Positions 2,466-29,869 of a stretch of DNA of 33,974 bases are shown piece by piece. Position 1 is the first letter of the stretch, and every line of letters starts with the position of its first letter. The position numbers and the translations under genes were made by a program. This stretch comes from a virus. Its lineage: Duplodnaviria > Heunggongvirae > Uroviricota > Caudoviricetes. Where the stretch lies: positions 1 through 33,974 of IMG/VR virus record IMGVR_UViG_2711768075_000013; one strand, written 5' to 3'. Below the pieces are notes generated by a model. That model saw only the letters and a program-made list of their open reading frames with translations, was not told the origin of the DNA and searched no databases.

Positions 2466-3458
2466 TTAAGGCTCTGTGATAACGGCAAAGTGCAGCCCAT
2501 TATGGTTAACTACTAATGGGGTACTGCTGTTATTTGCTGTTTGTAAATGTATTTTGTTAATTGTCATCGGCTCCGTGGTCTGCCTTCCCGACTGCCACTG
2601 AACGGTATTAACTGTCAGTGGTTCAATAGTTCGCCGCTCCGACAATAGTTGCATTCTGTTAATCAGCAATGGTTCCTGACTCAGGTTTCCCGCCTGAAGC
2701 TGCGTATTGTTGATTGTGAGCGGTTTACCTTTCAGTACAGGAATAACTGCAAAATGCATTCCGGCATTATTTATCAGCAGAGGCGCATCAGCATGACATA
2801 CTGACTGAAACTGAATTCTGTTAATTGTCAGTGGTGATACTGGCTCTGGCTGAGATGTGATTTCATAAGTGAAATAACAGTCTGTAAAAGCCGGTTTAAG
2901 GTCTTTAAACGTGTTTTCTAAAATGGATTCACCAAAGGCCGTCAGCGGTTCGCCGGTTGCCGATGCGCCCGTTCTGAACCGGTAGACAGGTGTTTTTGTC
3001 CCGATAACATTGACCTGCCACGCCCAGCGGATTTCTGGTATCAGCAGGCGGTCGCCGCAGCGGTTTATCCCCACCCGGAATGGTCGCGGCTCCGTAATGG
3101 TGATGGTGTAGCCCAGACTGGCGGCAAGGCTTTTGAAGTAAGGGATTGACAGCCCCCCCGTGGCAGCCATTTTTACCAGAATGTTCTGACGCCGCTCCTG
3201 TTGTGTTGCCCCTTCACGAGGAATAACACCGTACACGCGCTCCCAGTCGGACAGCGTCATCGATGCCTGCAACGGGGTGATTTGTGTCAGAACGCGCGCC
3301 GCTGACGCCTTCACGACTTCCATGACGTCAGCCTCGGCTGTCAGTTCTGCGGAAATATATTTCCCGTTCAGGTCATAACTGACAGGTGGCAGCATGGCGC
3401 GAAATAAATCGACCATATTCATAAAATCACCCCTCGCGCGGAAAAGGCTGAATATCAA
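2466..3458 (-). CDS. baseplate protein gp48-like (YmfQ/DUF2313-like) with about 130-aa C-terminal repeat extension
   Basis: N-terminal about 200 aa resemble the gp48 family; the C-terminus carries roughly seven 18-20-aa repeats of the form PLxxNxxxxQ. Confidence 0.55.
   Translation of the reverse strand: MIFSLFRARGDFMNMVDLFRAMLPPVSYDLNGKYISAELTAEADVMEVVKASAARVLTQITPLQASMTLSDWERVYGVIPREGATQQERRQNILVKMAATGGLSIPYFKSLAASLGYTITITEPRPFRVGINRCGDRLLIPEIRWAWQVNVIGTKTPVYRFRTGASATGEPLTAFGESILENTFKDLKPAFTDCYFTYEITSQPEPVSPLTINRIQFQSVCHADAPLLINNAGMHFAVIPVLKGKPLTINNTQLQAGNLSQEPLLINRMQLLSERRTIEPLTVNTVQWQSGRQTTEPMTINKIHLQTANNSSTPLVVNHNGLHFAVITEP
2470..2860. repeat. degenerate tandem repeats of about 57-60 bp encoding the gp48-like C-terminal extension
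   Basis: Recurring CTGTTAATTGTCAGTGG-like segments; peptide repeats PLTINRIQFQS / PLLINNAGMHFAV / PLTINNTQLQ and similar. Confidence 0.4.
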
Positions 3459-4506
3459 TATTTCCCGGGCGCAACCATTCCCACGTTGACGCGTTAATAA
3501 TGGCTTTTACGTTGTCCGCTGGCGTAATGATTCGCCGGTCACTGACACCGGAAATTAATGAAATCTGGGTTTCCAGTTGTGAAATTATTAATTCCTGCCC
3601 CGGCTCCAGCCGGTTCATAAAATCCGTGATAACGTCAGTTATTTGCGGTTTTATCTGCTCAACGGTCAGGCCGCTGGTTTTTACCCGGACAACGAAATCA
3701 ACGGCTTTTTTCGTCGGGGCCAGTACCATCGTGTCCTTCGCTGTGACCGGGCGGACTTCCTCAATATGTGCCAGCACGGCATTAATCAGTTCCTGCGAGG
3801 GAAGGTCATTGGCTGACGTAATGGCCACATCAACCGTTCCCAGCCCACGACGCAATGACTCCACATATGCCGAGGTAACGCCATCCACTTCCAGCGCCCA
3901 GCGTTTGTAATCATATTTGTTACCGCCAGCGGGCGGCCTGCGCAGAATATCCAGATAACGCGCCAGCAGGTCGGCGTCACTTTCCCTGTCCGTTCCGCCG
4001 GTCAGGGATTTAATCGTCACCGTGCTGTTGATGCCTTCCGGCGGACTGACCAGCGTTGCCGTCTGCGTTGTGGATGCGTTCGTATGTGCGCCCGTGGTGG
4101 TGCTTTTTGCCGTCACCTCCGCGCTGCCTTCATCACCGATGGTGCAGTCTGCGGTGGTGGCCACGCTGACACCTTCACCACGAATTTCCGCACCGGCTGG
4201 CAGCATCTTACCGGGTGTACCGGTAATCACTGCCGGGCCGGATGAGGCCGTTGCTTTTTTACGAAAAACATTGCGCGCGCGGCAGTGCAGCTCCAGATAT
4301 TCAGGGTCTGCCGTGTCAGGAAACACCTGACGGAGTATCCACCCCTGATGCATATAAAGCCCGTCAGCCACGCCAGATACGGCATTTGCACGAATGCGGT
4401 AATCGCTGTCAGCGCCGGTGTCGATGGTTTCTCCCGGCAGGGCGTTAGCGATATCACGTAGCTGGCGTTCTGTGTTTTCAGCAACGCCCGGAACTGGAAA
4501 CGGCAT
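3427..4506 (-). CDS. baseplate J-like protein (Mu gp47-like)
   Basis: 359-aa protein, gene order. Confidence 0.7.
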   Translation of the reverse strand: MPFPVPGVAENTERQLRDIANALPGETIDTGADSDYRIRANAVSGVADGLYMHQGWILRQVFPDTADPEYLELHCRARNVFRKKATASSGPAVITGTPGKMLPAGAEIRGEGVSVATTADCTIGDEGSAEVTAKSTTTGAHTNASTTQTATLVSPPEGINSTVTIKSLTGGTDRESDADLLARYLDILRRPPAGGNKYDYKRWALEVDGVTSAYVESLRRGLGTVDVAITSANDLPSQELINAVLAHIEEVRPVTAKDTMVLAPTKKAVDFVVRVKTSGLTVEQIKPQITDVITDFMNRLEPGQELIISQLETQISLISGVSDRRIITPADNVKAIINASTWEWLRPGNIDIQPFPREG

Positions 4507-23465: not shown

Positions 23466-23648
23466 TCAGTTCTGCGAACACTGCCGGATACCGTCAATAA
23501 TCCGGCAGACCTGCGCCGCCGCGTCAAACAGCTGGCCCGCTCTGTTAATGTCTGAGCATCCCACCGGAAGCAACATCATCAGAAACAGGGCCAGAACACA
23601 GCGCGCGGCTTTACGTGGCGTTCTGTGGGGCCAGCGACTTCTGTTCAT
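23466..23648 (-). CDS. small lipoprotein (o-spanin-like lysis accessory candidate)
   Basis: Hydrophobic segment then LLPVGC lipobox-like motif, about 30-aa mature part; position right after the endolysin. Confidence 0.4.
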   Translation of the reverse strand: MNRSRWPHRTPRKAARCVLALFLMMLLPVGCSDINRAGQLFDAAAQVCRIIDGIRQCSQN

Positions 23649-25204: not shown

Positions 25205-25672
25205 TTAATCAAAAAGCCCCACCTGGGTGGGGCTTTTCAGCGAAGTCTGTTTTTGTCGTCGGTGTATCAGCTGCCATGCGTACCGGTCTGAAATCCCGTA
25301 GCGGGGACAGAGCAGTGCCAGCGCCTGCCGGTGTGAGCATCCGTCTTTTACATGCTGCTGTAAATCAGCCATAAAACGGGTGTTACGCAGGGCACGTAAC
25401 GCATGATCACAACGGGGAATGTAAAACGGTGCACCGCCAAGAAAGCGGATCAGTTTGTTGATTTCGTCTTCGGTCAGCACATCATGTAACAGGGCATGGA
25501 CACCGCCGGTGCGTCCGGCGTGTGCGCCGGTTTTACCGCTTAACGTCACGCCACCAAAAGAACGGATTAACCGGGTCAGGGCGGGGAAGCCAATCACGCT
25601 AATCAGTTGCTGTACGGAATCGGGCAGCAGTGCCTGCGCATCGCGAAGATCTGTTTCACTGAAGGTCTGCAT
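25205..25672 (-). CDS. Mor/C-family transcriptional activator (middle or late activator)
   Basis: Motifs FGG...YIP and C-terminal HTH YGISDRYAWQLI typical of Mor/C; sits just upstream of the lysis cassette with its own promoter and terminators. Confidence 0.7.
   Translation of the reverse strand: MQTFSETDLRDAQALLPDSVQQLISVIGFPALTRLIRSFGGVTLSGKTGAHAGRTGGVHALLHDVLTEDEINKLIRFLGGAPFYIPRCDHALRALRNTRFMADLQQHVKDGCSHRQALALLCPRYGISDRYAWQLIHRRQKQTSLKSPTQVGLFD
25210..25234 (-). terminator. hairpin plus T-tract overlapping the 3' end of the Mor/C-family gene
   Basis: Minus strand AGCCCCACC-ca-GGTGGGGCT followed by TTTTT, ending a few nt before the stop codon. Confidence 0.4.
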
Positions 25673-25694
25673 GATGGCGTCTCCGGTAGTAACT

Positions 25695-25731
25695 TACTGT
25701 TATTATAGCCATACATGATCGCCTGTACAGA
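25695..25731 (-). promoter_or_regulatory. candidate promoter of the Mor/C-family activator gene
   Basis: Consensus TATAAT (plus 25702-25707) about 25 nt upstream of the GGAGA RBS; -35 region is poor (CTGTAC), as expected for an activator-dependent promoter. Confidence 0.4.
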
Positions 25732-25734
25732 CCA

Positions 25735-25762
25735 CAAAAAAGCCCCTGCAAGGCAGGGGCTG
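25735..25762 (-). terminator. rho-independent terminator after the GemA-like gene
   Basis: Minus strand AGCCCCTGC-cttg-CAGGGGCT followed by TTTTTT. Confidence 0.55.
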
Positions 25763-25767
25763 ATTCT

Positions 25768-26181
25768 TTATTGTTTACGTGCTGCTCTGGCTCGTTTTCT
25801 GGCGTCTTTTGTCAGCGCCACCATCACCCCGAACAGCTGATCATCTGTCAGCCATTCGATCACATGTTGCTTATACATGTGAGATGCCAGTCCTTCCGCA
25901 TACGCCCAGGAACGACCGGCATCAGCCAGCAACGCCTCAATTTTGGATAATACCGATTTTCTGCTCATTGCAACACGGGGGCGGCGACCTTTACCGGCGG
26001 GCGCTTTGCGCGGAAATCCCTGTTCGTGCATGTATTCCCGGATGATGCGCAGTTCATCGAGATTGCAGCGTGTGGTGCTGGTTTTACCGGTCAGGCGGGC
26101 CAGCGTCTGACGATAAAGGGCATCATCCCACCCCAGATACGCCTGACCGGCTTTAATGGCTCCGATCATCTTTTTCAGCAT
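25768..26181 (-). CDS. gemA: GemA-like protein (Mu gp16 family)
   Basis: Motif IGAIKAGQAYLGWDDALYRQTLARLTGKTS resembles the GemA family; ATG at 26181 with GAGGA RBS; terminator directly downstream. Confidence 0.55.
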   Translation of the reverse strand: MLKKMIGAIKAGQAYLGWDDALYRQTLARLTGKTSTTRCNLDELRIIREYMHEQGFPRKAPAGKGRRPRVAMSRKSVLSKIEALLADAGRSWAYAEGLASHMYKQHVIEWLTDDQLFGVMVALTKDARKRARAARKQ

Positions 26182-26431
26182 GTTTGTTATCCTCAAAACG
26201 CACGGTAAAACGTGAAACACCAATCCCCGACAGGAACGCGGCGGCACGGTCAAGAGACAGCCACGTCTTGTAATCGCCACGGCGTTCCTGTAGAAAATAG
26301 GACACCCCGGCGCGGCGATTCACAGCGAAGAGGTGATACACACCATCGAACCGCTGCACGACGAACTCATCCACGCCACCGCTTTCAGCCTGCTGCCGGA
26401 AGGCTGCCATTCCGATTTGTTCAATTTTCAT
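26153..26431 (-). CDS. hypothetical protein, about 92 aa, preceded by a palindromic operator
   Basis: Internal ATG at 26431 (MKIEQ...); a 28-bp palindrome lies 23-50 nt upstream; 3' end overlaps the GemA-like start. Confidence 0.4.
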   Translation of the reverse strand: MKIEQIGMAAFRQQAESGGVDEFVVQRFDGVYHLFAVNRRAGVSYFLQERRGDYKTWLSLDRAAAFLSGIGVSRFTVRFEDNKHAEKDDRSH

Positions 26432-26453
26432 AATGACCAAAACATTACTTTTG

Positions 26454-26481
26454 GCAGACCAAAACACATGTTTTGGTCTGC
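26454..26481. promoter_or_regulatory. 28-bp near-perfect palindrome (operator candidate)
   Basis: GCAGACCAAAACA-ca-TGTTTTGGTCTGC with 13-bp perfect arms; a third TGTTTTGGTC copy lies between the palindrome and the ATG at 26431. Confidence 0.45.
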
Positions 26482-26585
26482 ATTTGATTACCGTTTAAAC
26501 AACTCGCGAAATCAGGAACGTCGAGTTACGGTGATGGCTTTCATCGTGTTGTTGCTCCGTGATTCAGAAAATTCCATATCAAGCC

Positions 26586-26996
26586 TCAGTATGTGAAATA
26601 GACAGTTGCCACGCCGTTATAGTGATCAAACGACACGGCGTTTACCTCATAACTGGCCGGGAGCTTCGAGCCAAGAACGTATCCGGGCCACGTTTTCCAT
26701 GGAATTTCTCTGCGCTCACTATCGCCATATACCGTACATCCCAGTGAGCCTACAGCTTCATTAGAACGCGTGCCGCACGTTATAAATCCCAGATTTTGCT
26801 TACTGCTCTTAATGGTGATTGGGTGAACGCTGGCTGATGCATTAGCAGCACGCTGTGCCTGTTGGTTTGCGATATTCGCAGAGTTCGCAGCAGCTACAGC
26901 AGCCGTAGTCGCGGCGGTAGAGGCTACAATAGCTGCTGAAGCATGCACTTGTTGGGTAATTGTCAGCAATGCCGCCACAAAAACCATTTTCTTCAC
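26586..26996 (-). CDS. secreted / periplasmic protein with signal peptide, 136 aa (accessory moron candidate)
   Basis: N-terminus MKKMVFVAALLTITQQVHA-SA is a classic n/h/c signal peptide with an AXA-like cleavage site; strong SD AAAGGAGGTG upstream; bounded by two unusually long intergenic gaps. Confidence 0.5.
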   Translation of the reverse strand: MKKMVFVAALLTITQQVHASAAIVASTAATTAAVAAANSANIANQQAQRAANASASVHPITIKSSKQNLGFITCGTRSNEAVGSLGCTVYGDSERREIPWKTWPGYVLGSKLPASYEVNAVSFDHYNGVATVYFTY

Positions 26997-27192
26997 CTGG
27001 CACCTCCTTTACATACCGTGATTTTTCCAGCGGTTTTGGGCTGCGCTTCTGTTTCGCCAGACACCGTAAAAACGAATAGAGGACCACTCCCTAAAACCAA
27101 GATATCTATAGCGAACAACAAGCCGATTTGAGATACGGATAAGCTGTCCGGGTTTTGCTATCAGCAGTCTTGCTTTACGGTTTTTCATCGTT

Positions 27193-27381
27193 TCATTCTC
27201 CTGTATTTACCACTGACTCTGCACTGTCAGCCCTGCGGCGCGCCTGAAGTTCCAGCATTGCGGCCCGGAAATCCTGCCACCATACCTCATCGGCAACGGG
27301 GGTGTTCCGATCCAGCACCTTGTCCGCATCGGCAATCAGTCTGGCCAGGCTCTTATCGCTTATTCTGGTTTGCTGGTTCAC
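27193..27381 (-). CDS. hypothetical small protein, 62 aa
   Basis: Stop/start overlap with the upstream gene. Confidence 0.4.
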   Translation of the reverse strand: MNQQTRISDKSLARLIADADKVLDRNTPVADEVWWQDFRAAMLELQARRRADSAESVVNTGE

Positions 27382-27602
27382 TGCGCCGCCTCCTGTTTTG
27401 CCACTTTAAACGCCCGTAACATCGGGACCCTCTTACCGTAGATGACGGTTCTCATTAAAAGGCCTCCATCACTCTTATGGTGCACTTCAGGGGCCACAAA
27501 CAGCGCCGCATCCACAACCCGGCAATAGTGACGGAACTCCCAGAACCAGCAGGAAATAGTGATAACTGCGGTACCATTGTGTTCATAAAATTCAATATTC
27601 AT
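27378..27602 (-). CDS. hypothetical small protein, 74 aa
   Basis: Stop/start overlaps with both neighbours. Confidence 0.4.
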   Translation of the reverse strand: MNIEFYEHNGTAVITISCWFWEFRHYCRVVDAALFVAPEVHHKSDGGLLMRTVIYGKRVPMLRAFKVAKQEAAQ

Positions 27603-27826
27603 TTGCAGTTAAACCTCCTTTTATGGCGTTCTACGGCGGCTTTCATGGCGTTGTGCACGGTTCTTTTAATAATCCGGCGTCCCGCACTGTCATAGAACCG
27701 CCACCGGGAAGCCCCCGGATATCCGGGGAACTCAACCGCTGCGCTACCGTCATCCATCCTGTATTCGTGGCGTTCTCCGGGCGGCTGGTATATTGCTTCG
27801 GTAACACTGAGAAGTTTAAAAGCCAT
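27599..27826 (-). CDS. hypothetical small protein, 75 aa
   Basis: Stop/start overlaps with both neighbours. Confidence 0.4.
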   Translation of the reverse strand: MAFKLLSVTEAIYQPPGERHEYRMDDGSAAVEFPGYPGASRWRFYDSAGRRIIKRTVHNAMKAAVERHKRRFNCK

Positions 27827-27828
27827 CG

Positions 27829-28539
27829 TTACACCCTCCCCAGTGCCAGCGTTTTGTTGCTCTGACCATTAACCCCCTGATGCAGTCTGGCGTTTTTCCC
27901 GGCGATAAAACCGGCTGTAGCGGCAGACTCTGCACCCCGGCACGCTTTAGCGGTGCGCATATCCCCGTCGCGCAGTCCCTTGGTGCTGTGCAGGTTCTTT
28001 CTGTAAAGCTCAAGGCGGCTTTTTTCTTCCGGGGAGACGTCATACACCGCAATGACATCACGGGCACCAAAGACCCAGCCTTCGCAGAACTGGTCGCCAC
28101 GGGCCACCCGCGTGGACGGGCCGCAACGTTTGCAGTGTTTATCCTGATATTTCTTGCGCTCTGCCATCATCTGACGGGAAAGCACATCAAACGCGTAGGC
28201 CGCGATTTCCGGGCGGCTGTCAGGACCATAAAAACGAACGTAACGTTTGAGTGAACCAGAAGCCCGGTATTCGCCGGAGATGTAACACTCGACACCGAAG
28301 GCTTTACAGACCAGGTCACACAGGATGTGCATATAACGCGGCGGTGTACTGGCATCACTCGGCGCACCCGCGCTGGCAGCGTCCTGAATGTCGAACAATT
28401 CCGCGTCGTTTTCGCTGATACCATGCTGGCGCATATAAGCCTGGGCTTTTGCAATAGCGTTAGCGGCTTCTTCCGGGCTTGATGTCCCTCTTGCAAGGCG
28501 TAACAGCTTTTTAATTTTGGCGATGTATTTATTTTTCAT
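27829..28539 (-). CDS. hypothetical protein, 236 aa, DUF2786-like N-terminus with Cys-containing C-terminal region
   Basis: N-terminus IAKIKKLLRLA...AKAQAYMRQHGI resembles DUF2786; C-terminal HCKRCG / FCEGW cysteines. Confidence 0.45.
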   Translation of the reverse strand: MKNKYIAKIKKLLRLARGTSSPEEAANAIAKAQAYMRQHGISENDAELFDIQDAASAGAPSDASTPPRYMHILCDLVCKAFGVECYISGEYRASGSLKRYVRFYGPDSRPEIAAYAFDVLSRQMMAERKKYQDKHCKRCGPSTRVARGDQFCEGWVFGARDVIAVYDVSPEEKSRLELYRKNLHSTKGLRDGDMRTAKACRGAESAATAGFIAGKNARLHQGVNGQSNKTLALGRV

Positions 28540-28817
28540 GGTCGTCTGAACCTCAGCATCCTGAATTCTGAATTACGCAACTTCCGGCACGGCCTTCAGG
28601 AACGTGGGGAGTTCGTTCTGGCTGCGGTACTGAATGAGCATCTGCTGTCGATTGAGAACTGGTCGCAAGACGATTAAAACAAACGATTGTCAGATTAATT
28701 TCGCGGGCGAACTTTTTTTGCTTTGCGATATTCATAAATAAACTCTCTCTGACTCAGGCGTAAGCCAGCCCCGGCGGGTTTACGCCTGTTTTAAATAACA
28801 ATTAAAAACAAATTAAA

Positions 28818-29009
28818 TTAATGCGGTGCTTTCAGTGTTTCGATTTTAACGAAATAAGGCTCGACATTAATTTCAACCACACAACCACATTTAAAATCTC
28901 TGGCAGGTGAAACGGTTTTCACCACACGGCCACCACGCAACGCCGGATGTGCAGTGTGCATGAAGCGAGTCCCTACCGGATACTGCTTATTAAAGTTCTT
29001 CGCATTCAT
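28818..29009 (-). CDS. hypothetical small protein, 63 aa
   Basis: ORF overlapping the upstream gene by about 20 nt; followed by a long AT-rich gap. Confidence 0.35.
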   Translation of the reverse strand: MNAKNFNKQYPVGTRFMHTAHPALRGGRVVKTVSPARDFKCGCVVEINVEPYFVKIETLKAPH

Positions 29010-29223
29010 GGCGTGGCCTCCAGCCCTTCAGGTGAGCGTTAGCGCAGAACTCCGCGCGATGTTCAGCCCAGATGCGGCGCAGGGTGCTACACGGGCTTTG
29101 CGCTGCCTTGCGCCACAGTTTTTCTGCCTCATCATAATCGCCGCGTTGTTCTGCTCTGGATGCACCCAGCGAATACGCCGCGCAACGATTTCCGGCTCTG
29201 TACTCTTTGATATCCTGATGCAT
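28990..29223 (-). CDS. hypothetical small protein, about 77 aa from internal ATG
   Basis: ORF-track ORF 28990-29313; the ATG at 29223 abuts the stop of the upstream gene. Confidence 0.35.
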   Translation of the reverse strand: MHQDIKEYRAGNRCAAYSLGASRAEQRGDYDEAEKLWRKAAQSPCSTLRRIWAEHRAEFCANAHLKGWRPRHECEEL

Positions 29224-29224
29224 G

Positions 29225-29869
29225 TTAAACCCCTGCAATATCAAGCGGGATTGCGCGGTATTCATCAGAATCACCAACGCGCTCATACACACGAATATAG
29301 CTCTTGCTGCCAATCACCTGGACGGCTTCACCAATCAGCATCATGGCGTTATTCCAGCGTTCGTCCTCAATTTCGAGGCGACGCAGGGCCAGAACGCGCC
29401 CTGTGTTAATGTTGCCTTCCTTGTCCGTGCTGAATGCCTCGCTAATGATGGCTTTAATTTCAGGGCGCGCACCTTCCGTCCAGTCAGCCAGGCAATCATC
29501 AATCAGCGACTTCGCGGTCTGAATGCGTTCATCAAACGCGATACGGTCCTGCATGGCGCGCTGAATCTTGTATCGCCCGTCAAAGCTGTAAAGCGTGATA
29601 TTGCCTTTTTTGCCGCCTTTCACAGCGCCGTATTTCTCCGCCGACAGGTCAATAAATGCCTGGATATCACCAAACGCACGCAGTTTCAGTTCCCGCAGCG
29701 AGGCGGAGGCAGCAATCACCATCTCCACAAGCTCACCGACCAGCTGCTCGCGGTCGCGGTCAATATCTTTGATAAGGCTTTCAGGTGTCATTACGCCACG
29801 GGCATCCACCCAGTAACCTTCAGGCGCTTGAGTTTTCGTGTATTGCTTAACTTTATTTTCAGTCGTCAT
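29225..29869 (-). CDS. conserved Mu-like early-region protein, 214 aa (possibly DUF3164-like)
   Basis: Position in the semi-essential region; family name is from memory and unverified. Confidence 0.45.
   Translation of the reverse strand: MTTENKVKQYTKTQAPEGYWVDARGVMTPESLIKDIDRDREQLVGELVEMVIAASASLRELKLRAFGDIQAFIDLSAEKYGAVKGGKKGNITLYSFDGRYKIQRAMQDRIAFDERIQTAKSLIDDCLADWTEGARPEIKAIISEAFSTDKEGNINTGRVLALRRLEIEDERWNNAMMLIGEAVQVIGSKSYIRVYERVGDSDEYRAIPLDIAGV

Follow-up and report, generated by a model that had tools for sequence, protein, structure and literature searches.

A putative exchange cassette for a predicted exported protein in the early operon of a Mu-like prophage

The locus

The window considered here is the whole stretch of 33,974 nucleotides (nt) that makes up IMG/VR virus record IMGVR_UViG_2711768075_000013, and it is a Mu-like transposable prophage. 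The element under study is a minus-strand gene for a protein of 136 amino acids (aa), together with the DNA on both sides of it (Table 1). A strong Shine-Dalgarno (SD) sequence precedes the gene, as does a second small gene encoding a very basic protein of 59 aa, and the remains of a third gene and a perfect palindrome follow it. The 136-aa gene probably belongs to a cassette that moves among enterobacterial phages without a promoter of its own, and its product is predicted to be exported. The original prediction, made from the letters of the window, had picked out this 136-aa open reading frame (ORF) and its strong SD, and both are confirmed.

Table 1. Features of the locus, in window positions
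Feature	Position	Strand	Basis and remarks
136-aa gene	26586..26996	-	GTG start, TGA stop 26586..26588; WP_032300908.1; PHROG 8805; predicted exported accessory protein
Shine-Dalgarno of 136-aa gene, AAGGAGGTG	27001..27009	-	Sequence; overlaps the TAA of the 59-aa gene (27009..27011)
Signal peptide, Sec-type (predicted), MKKMVFVAALLTITQQVHA	26940..26996 (codons 1-19)	-	Hydropathy profile; predicted signal peptidase I (SPase I) site after VHA
Ala/Thr/Asn/Gln-rich low-complexity linker	26823..26939 (codons 20-58)	-	Length variation; AlphaFold2 (AF2) helix of low confidence, predicted local distance difference test (pLDDT) 50-68
Conserved C-terminal domain	26589..26822 (codons 59-136)	-	Alignment; predicted beta-rich with one helix; Cys74/Cys87 invariant; ends ...VATVYFTY
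519-bp cassette (SD, 136-aa ORF, relic)	26499..27017	-	Present or absent among related Mu-like prophages; empty sites
Decayed 5' relic of 'MKFSKF...' gene	26499..26581	-	DNA alignment; ATG 26575..26577; 17-nt deletion and further decay
Perfect 28-bp palindrome, 12-bp stem, GCAGACCAAAAC.ATGT.GTTTTGGTCTGC	26454..26481	.	Backbone element, not part of the cassette; upstream of 92-aa gene
59-aa basic protein gene	27009..27188	-	TAA 27009..27011; WP_029392801.1; PHROG 1380; independent small-gene module

About 1.2 kb around the locus is 100% identical to a prophage of Escherichia coli O166:H15 JNE21-009. The order of genes in that prophage as called by the Prokaryotic Genome Annotation Pipeline (PGAP), read along the minus strand of the window, is a helix-turn-helix (ner-like) gene, the Mu transposase, an AAA ATPase, a run of small genes, DUF3164, an ANR-family regulator, DUF2786, five small hypothetical genes, GemA, Mor, and finally holins with an endolysin. 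This order places the locus in the distal, non-essential portion of the early operon. Four small genes between 27602 and 26586 lie close together, their successive junctions being an overlap of 4 nt and spacers of 4 and 12 nt, and RefSeq lists both the 136-aa and the 59-aa products of the O166:H15 prophage as hypothetical proteins. The lysis genes of the window do not adjoin the 136-aa gene.

Conservation of the 136-aa gene

The 136-aa protein matches the PHROG 8805 profile over its full length (E 7.4e-87, residues 1-136 against positions 1-136 of 136), and its close homologues form 55 clusters at identities of at least 71%. Comparison with five other copies gives ratios of non-synonymous to synonymous substitution (dN/dS) of 0.14-0.38 and a significant synonymous excess (p 1e-3 to 7e-9). 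The GTG start is kept in all six of the copies compared, and the internal Met4 is replaced by Ile in the copy found in phage Av-05. An AAGGAG stands at an equal distance from the GTG in the plasmid, lambdoid and Av-05 copies. The gene is real and is under purifying selection.

Scans of Pfam and NCBIfam with the 136-aa protein, the 59-aa protein and three neighbouring proteins gave no significant match; the best, to DUF7153 (E 0.057), is inconsistent among family members. None of the five proteins of this block matches a PADLOC model at E values up to 1. Neither PHROG 8805 nor PHROG 1380, to which the 59-aa protein belongs, includes a characterised member, and membership is therefore uninformative on function. 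Literature searches by accession and by PHROG number returned no papers, and a keyword search on periplasmic superinfection exclusion returned nothing on the 136-aa family.

Predicted export and domain structure

The N-terminus of the 136-aa protein, MKKMVFVAALLTITQQVHA followed by SA, has the three parts of an export signal, namely MKK with its two lysines (K2, K3), an 11-residue hydrophobic core (MVFVAALLTIT), and QQVHA immediately before the SA. The same arrangement recurs throughout the family. A net positive n-region occurs in 92 of 97 full-length members, the exceptions being truncated or mis-started gene calls, and a hydrophobic h-region (a 10-residue window with a mean Kyte-Doolittle value of at least 1.8) in 95. 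A candidate (-3,-1) site is found in all 97, in the window protein as V-H-A before S, and the alignment shows Ala19, at -1, to be invariant across subfamilies. In distant members, at 35-52% identity, the N-terminal sequence differs but the three-part signal is kept. Independent annotation points the same way: a homologue in Klebsiella phage KLB16 is labelled 'contains ... a signal peptide domain', and a UniRef entry for a homologue reads 'Prophage exported protein'. Because the signal features persist although the N-terminal sequence diverges, and because of the outside labels and the two invariant cysteines, the 136-aa protein is very probably exported.

A canonical signal peptide had been proposed for the window protein, and the features described above extend that prediction to its relatives. 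The comment that such a signal would be unusual in the early operon also holds, since no other early-operon product of this prophage has an export-type N-terminus. Reading the product as a lipoprotein was considered and rejected, given that there is no lipobox (L-x-x-C), that no cysteine precedes residue 74 and that the candidate site is of the SPase I type.

The length of the low-complexity linker differs among close homologues, and in the siphophage subfamily it is replaced by short Pro- or charge-rich linkers. Because of this replacement in distant members, residues 20-58 are best read as a spacer and not as a second membrane segment. A transmembrane assignment for the Ala-rich segment was rejected on the same grounds, with the additional point that its hydrophobicity is too low.

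The conserved C-terminal domain, of ~75 aa, has the consensus GF[IV]TCG..SLGC..P[WY]..P....G...Y.V..[VI].[FY]D..N..[AT]T[VI]YF.Y. A first AF2 run with close homologues only was unusable (pLDDT 49). A second run, to which distant members were added, predicts a small beta-rich fold with one helix at pLDDT 84-93 over residues 71-136, so that the structure prediction called for originally gives a confident model of this domain. Fold and sequence searches of the PDB and BFVD found no relatives of the domain except one family member, and PDB sequence searches with family profiles were empty for both the 136-aa and the 59-aa proteins. The possibility that the C-terminus (..YFTY) is a PDZ ligand or resembles that of an outer-membrane protein was set aside; some members extend past the terminal Tyr.

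Distribution of the family

The family is narrow, as an exhaustive hidden Markov model (HMM) search of 1.84 billion representatives gave only 17 matches, with no distant relative that carries an annotation. From a second profile search came 107 clusters. The named sources are all Enterobacteriaceae and include Escherichia, Salmonella, Shigella and Citrobacter as well as Cronobacter plasmids.

The carriers belong to five unrelated phage groups. Outside the Mu-like prophages, the nearest copies, at 88-95% DNA identity, are found on ~85-108-kb non-mobilizable plasmids of one replicon cluster, where they lie among ead/Ea22-like genes, and in the nin-like region of a lambdoid prophage. A copy with 81% identity is present in the virulent rV5-like phage Av-05. 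A subfamily at ~50% identity occurs in P1-like phage-plasmids, adjoining hot/humD/phd/doc, and members at ~36-49% identity are found in 45-kb siphophages, adjoining a cytosine methyltransferase and close to the terminase. The homologues in strictly virulent phages sit within operons. A tblastn search of 50,697 phage records matched only Av-05 and three 45-kb siphophage records; the 136-aa gene is in none of the Mu-like phage records of that collection. In the plasmids, the lambdoid prophages, Av-05 and the siphophages, the 136-aa gene occurs without the 59-aa gene.

The cassette, its insertion site and the downstream gap

The accessory character that the original prediction gave to the 136-aa gene is evident from its presence or absence at one site. 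The closely related Mu-like prophages of strains E2348/69 and OkiPb01701 do not have it, and at two empty sites the sequence equivalent to window position 27018 is joined to ~26498. Complete E. coli genomes with the backbone marker (the DUF2786 gene) number 58; 28 genomes span the junction between the 59-aa gene and the cassette, and the 136-aa gene is present in about half of the related prophages (~28/58). The other matches in E. coli genomes break exactly at 27018, where only the 59-aa gene is shared, or at 27010, where only the cassette is shared.

The insertion clipped the C-terminus of the 59-aa protein, turning ...WKNHTNAK into ...WKNHGM. The ...KNHGM end is found in all three of the cassette-bearing Mu-like prophages that were translated, and all 28 genomes span the same junction (27017/27018). 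Since both the junction and the altered C-terminus are shared, the comparison points to a single ancestral insertion.

The core held in common with the other phages, 26582..27010, consists of the SD and the ORF. In the plasmids, the lambdoid prophages and Av-05, a conserved gene follows 8 nt after the 136-aa gene, and its product has the pattern 'MKFSKF...HSPG...GFDWDSG'. The window retains the first ~83 nt after the 136-aa stop as a decayed relic of this gene, which, to judge from the alignment, arrived with the cassette and is a footprint of its origin.

The palindrome further downstream is also present at the empty sites, with a conserved outer stem of 11 bp around a variable centre. On the transcribed strand no U-tract directly follows it, and for this reason it does not appear to be a canonical terminator. 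It may serve in RNA processing or stability, as an attenuator or as a site to which a protein binds. Rfam, scanned with 26100-27400, yielded only a spurious microRNA match. From these alignments the downstream gap can be read as a gene relic next to a conserved backbone hairpin.

At the right-hand junction of the cassette, E. coli 20KM0223N has an extra gene for an 83-aa hypothetical protein without a Pfam match (4005..4287 of its compared region, L004), at a position that corresponds to window ~26491..26504. Because this gene was inserted at the same junction, the site looks like a hotspot at which small accessory genes recombine.

Spacing and expression signals

Only 12 nt separate the 59-aa stop from the GTG of the 136-aa gene, and they contain the SD and no promoter-like site. 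A scan of 27000-27190 against the sigma70 consensus, which is a crude test, likewise found no promoter-like site, and a scan of 25500-29500 found no strong terminator upstream of the 136-aa gene. Where the 136-aa gene occurs in plasmids and lambdoid prophages, its GTG overlaps the stop of the gene before it (GTGA). Given the 12-nt spacing, the lack of a sigma70-like site, the transfer of SD and ORF as a unit and the GTGA overlap elsewhere, the 136-aa gene is best described as promoter-less, lying within the repressor-controlled early operon and forming no independent transcription unit.

This changes how the surroundings of the gene are understood. Two long flanking gaps had been proposed, and with them the independent expression of an accessory gene. 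The downstream gap stands, as 154 nt of genuinely non-coding sequence (26432..26585); the upstream gap does not, being the coding sequence of the 59-aa gene. The proposal of independent expression is not upheld, with no gap upstream, a negative promoter check and a transferred unit that consists of SD and ORF.

The 59-aa basic protein gene

The ATG of the 59-aa gene lies 4 nt past the TGA (27193..27195) of an upstream 62-aa gene, and it has its own AGGAG at 27198..27202. The product has 15 Lys and Arg residues against one acidic residue, with a predicted isoelectric point of 12; being so extremely basic, it may bind nucleic acid, as its composition suggests. In shuffled sequences an ORF filled the 192-nt stretch in 444 of 20000 cases (~2%), and ORF length alone is therefore weak evidence for a gene. 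The case rests on conservation instead. The protein matches PHROG 1380 (E 8.2e-10), its homologues form 20 clusters that reach down to 56% identity and share 21 invariant positions, and dN/dS is 0.055-0.45; relative to the copy in E2348/69, nine of 11 differences are synonymous (p = 6e-5).

The gene is therefore real and under purifying selection, and it is neither hidden nor new. The original prediction of a basic 59-codon ORF 4 nt beyond the upstream stop was right as to the gene, and the conservation of the reading frame that was to be checked is seen in these clusters and substitution ratios; what does not hold is that the ORF was hidden, since PGAP annotates it as WP_029392801.1 in the 100%-identical O166:H15 prophage. 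PGAP is inconsistent in calling it. More than 20 complete RefSeq E. coli genomes carry an intact ORF of this family without an annotated feature, and identical or near-identical copies are annotated elsewhere.

The 59-aa gene is found without the 136-aa gene in E2348/69 (intact and unannotated), in phage HEMP4 and in many chromosomes and plasmids, and it is a separate module without a functional tie to the 136-aa gene. HEMP4, an Escherichia phage, has two tandem paralogues (2776..3194 of its compared region, L005), and an unrelated 319-aa ORF follows them. The first is fused behind a short leader and is highly diverged (MKNRKAKLLLLSRSTGYEKLPISNHKR...), and the second has 91% DNA identity to the window copy. 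The allele of E. coli UMNF18 (5773..5949 of L003) keeps the N-terminus MKNRKAK and the C-terminus SAAQNRRKNHGM around an unrelated, Cys-rich middle. Its naive dN/dS is above 1, which suggests internal replacement or a frameshift and return, and the middle of the protein may be dispensable or diversifying.

Possible origin and function

The explanation that accounts best for these observations, at a probability of roughly 60%, is that the 136-aa gene is a horizontally exchanged, promoter-less cassette of SD and ORF for an exported protein. Recombination would have brought the cassette into the early operon of a Mu-like transposable prophage, at a non-essential place. The Mu early operon is repressed in the lysogen, so that the gene would be transcribed with that operon on induction or infection and would be silent in the repressed lysogen; the homologues in virulent phages agree with such timing. 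The precursor would be exported by Sec and cleaved after VHA(19), and the mature protein of ~12 kDa would consist of a flexible Ala-rich linker and a beta-rich domain with a Cys74-Cys87 disulfide in the periplasm. During lytic growth it might then alter or guard the envelope independently of the receptor used by the carrier phage, a step proposed by analogy with other phages. A generic guard or modifier of the envelope is the simplest reading for a small, early-made, predicted periplasmic protein that recurs in five unrelated phage architectures. The likeliest specific role, although a doubtful one that is offered by analogy, is in exclusion: the protein would block secondary or competing phages or protect the envelope of the infected cell, on the model of T4 Sp/Imm or P1 Sim.

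Three points weigh against this explanation. The 136-aa protein has no sequence, profile or fold similarity to a characterised exclusion protein, lysozyme inhibitor or defence component. AF2 shows residues 7-53 as a single continuous helix, if at low confidence (pLDDT 46-68), and cleavage of the signal is a prediction. Finally, as the promoter scan was crude, a weak or non-sigma70 promoter may lie inside the 59-aa gene.

Several envelope proteins of phages offer a comparison. T4 Sp (spackle), T4 Imm and P1 Sim are envelope-located superinfection-exclusion proteins of an infecting or resident phage. The 136-aa protein resembles them in being small and non-structural, in having an N-terminal export signal and a presumed periplasmic location, and in being encoded by an early or non-essential gene; its sequence and its predicted fold are not similar to theirs. 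T5 Llp, the Cor proteins of phi80, N15 and T1, and lambda Bor are phage-encoded outer-membrane lipoproteins with a lipobox cysteine, and Llp and Cor mask one specific receptor, FhuA. They too come from enterobacterial phages, are exported and accessory, and act at the envelope, as predicted for the 136-aa protein, which in contrast has no cysteine before residue 74 and an A-x-A site of the SPase I type. The five unrelated groups that carry the 136-aa family presumably use different receptors, and masking of one specific receptor, as by Llp or Cor, fits poorly.

A bolder form of the proposal, which we regard as doubtful, is that the family represents a new class of periplasmic effector without fold relatives, exchanged as a bare SD and ORF among temperate, plasmid-borne and virulent enterobacterial phages. 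Such an effector might block competitors at the envelope during lytic growth or neutralise a host defence that is located there, and its mechanism would have no relation to those of T4 Sp/Imm, P1 Sim or Cor/Llp.

An equally doubtful alternative is that the protein acts on a periplasmic target of the host for the phage's own benefit, by inhibiting a hydrolase, protease or nuclease, by setting the timing of lysis, or by neutralising a defence located in the envelope. The gene lies in an early or host-takeover region in every context, a generic host target would suit carriers of very different lifestyles, and a small beta-rich domain with a predicted disulfide is like several periplasmic enzyme inhibitors. 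However, neither fold nor sequence is similar to inhibitors of the Ivy, PliC or MliC type or to any solved structure, the lysis genes of the window are not adjacent, and there is no PADLOC or other defence-related neighbour to suggest an anti-defence pairing.

It is unlikely, although there is something to be said for it, that the signal is not cleaved and serves as an anchor, making the product a bitopic inner-membrane protein whose Ala-rich helix is a periplasm-spanning stalk that holds the C-terminal domain near the peptidoglycan or outer membrane. This topology would be like that of i-spanins or of membrane-anchored exclusion proteins. The continuous helix predicted by AF2 would suit it, a spacer of 40 residues is easier to understand if the protein is tethered than if its N-terminus is free, and many residues of the Ala-rich segment are invariant among close homologues; one member also has an 'alanine-zipper' Pfam match, which is not significant (E 0.29). 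Set against this are the low pLDDT of the helix, the A-x-A type (-3,-1) site that is aligned in all subfamilies with its invariant A19, and the short Pro- or charge-rich linkers of distant members, by which a stalk would be dispensable.

Lysogenic conversion, or exclusion exerted from the lysogen, had been part of the original prediction and would make the gene a classical moron. Morons in the sense of Hendrix and co-workers are extra prophage genes between two genes, with their own promoter and terminator. The 136-aa gene shares with them its presence or absence between collinear prophages, its sharp boundaries and its occurrence in unrelated phages, and a moron transcribed from its own promoter in the lysogen could serve in receptor masking, serum resistance or phage exclusion. 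Its predicted export, its variable presence among related prophages and a downstream non-coding stretch with a stable hairpin are all in keeping with that idea, which is nonetheless quite improbable. Unlike a moron, the cassette begins at the SD and has no promoter of its own, with only 12 nt of non-coding DNA and no promoter-like site upstream. The hairpin belongs to the backbone and has no U-tract on the transcribed strand, the gene lies in a repressor-controlled early operon, and homologues within operons of strictly virulent phages have no lysogenic state to convert. Masking of one specific receptor would also be at odds with five unrelated carrier groups, which presumably use different receptors.

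A functional two-gene module made up of the 59-aa and 136-aa genes, such as a regulator with its effector, is hardly credible and is largely refuted by their distribution. Only 12 nt lie between the two, the SD of the second overlaps the stop of the first, and 28 E. coli genomes keep them as a pair. Each gene is nevertheless found without the other, and the 28 of 28 pairs at junction 27017/27018 fit one insertion by which the 59-aa protein lost its original C-terminus.

The locus is ordinary phage mosaic, or phage dark matter, rather than a hidden system. Its practical value at present is a corrected reading, with no independent unit, no hidden gene and an explained downstream gap. What interest remains attaches to a predicted exported family that has no characterised member or fold relative, yet persists in phages of temperate, plasmid-borne and virulent kinds. 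Its carriers comprise at least five phage types in Escherichia, Salmonella, Shigella, Citrobacter and Cronobacter, among them P1-like phage-plasmids, which clinical and livestock isolates commonly contain. If a role in exclusion or in protecting the envelope were true, this would be a new, very small and easily tested family among the few periplasmic effectors of phages.

Other features of the window

The 92-aa gene downstream of the gap (26153..26431, minus strand) belongs to PHROG 7844. Its weak NCBIfam match to a ParC partition-associated family (E 0.0016, 18 bits against a cutoff of 95) is probably meaningless. A 60-aa ORF after the M15 endolysin (23466..23648, minus strand), annotated as hypothetical only, has an N-terminus resembling a lipoprotein signal (…ALFLMMLLPVG) and four cysteines, and probably encodes the lysis cassette's outer-membrane spanin. 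A strong hairpin of the intrinsic-terminator type (25741..25761, minus strand), with a 9-bp stem that includes seven GC pairs and is followed by TTTTTTGTGG, separates the stop of gemA at 25768 from the start of mor at 25672; it would act within the early operon, directly before the activator of the middle genes.

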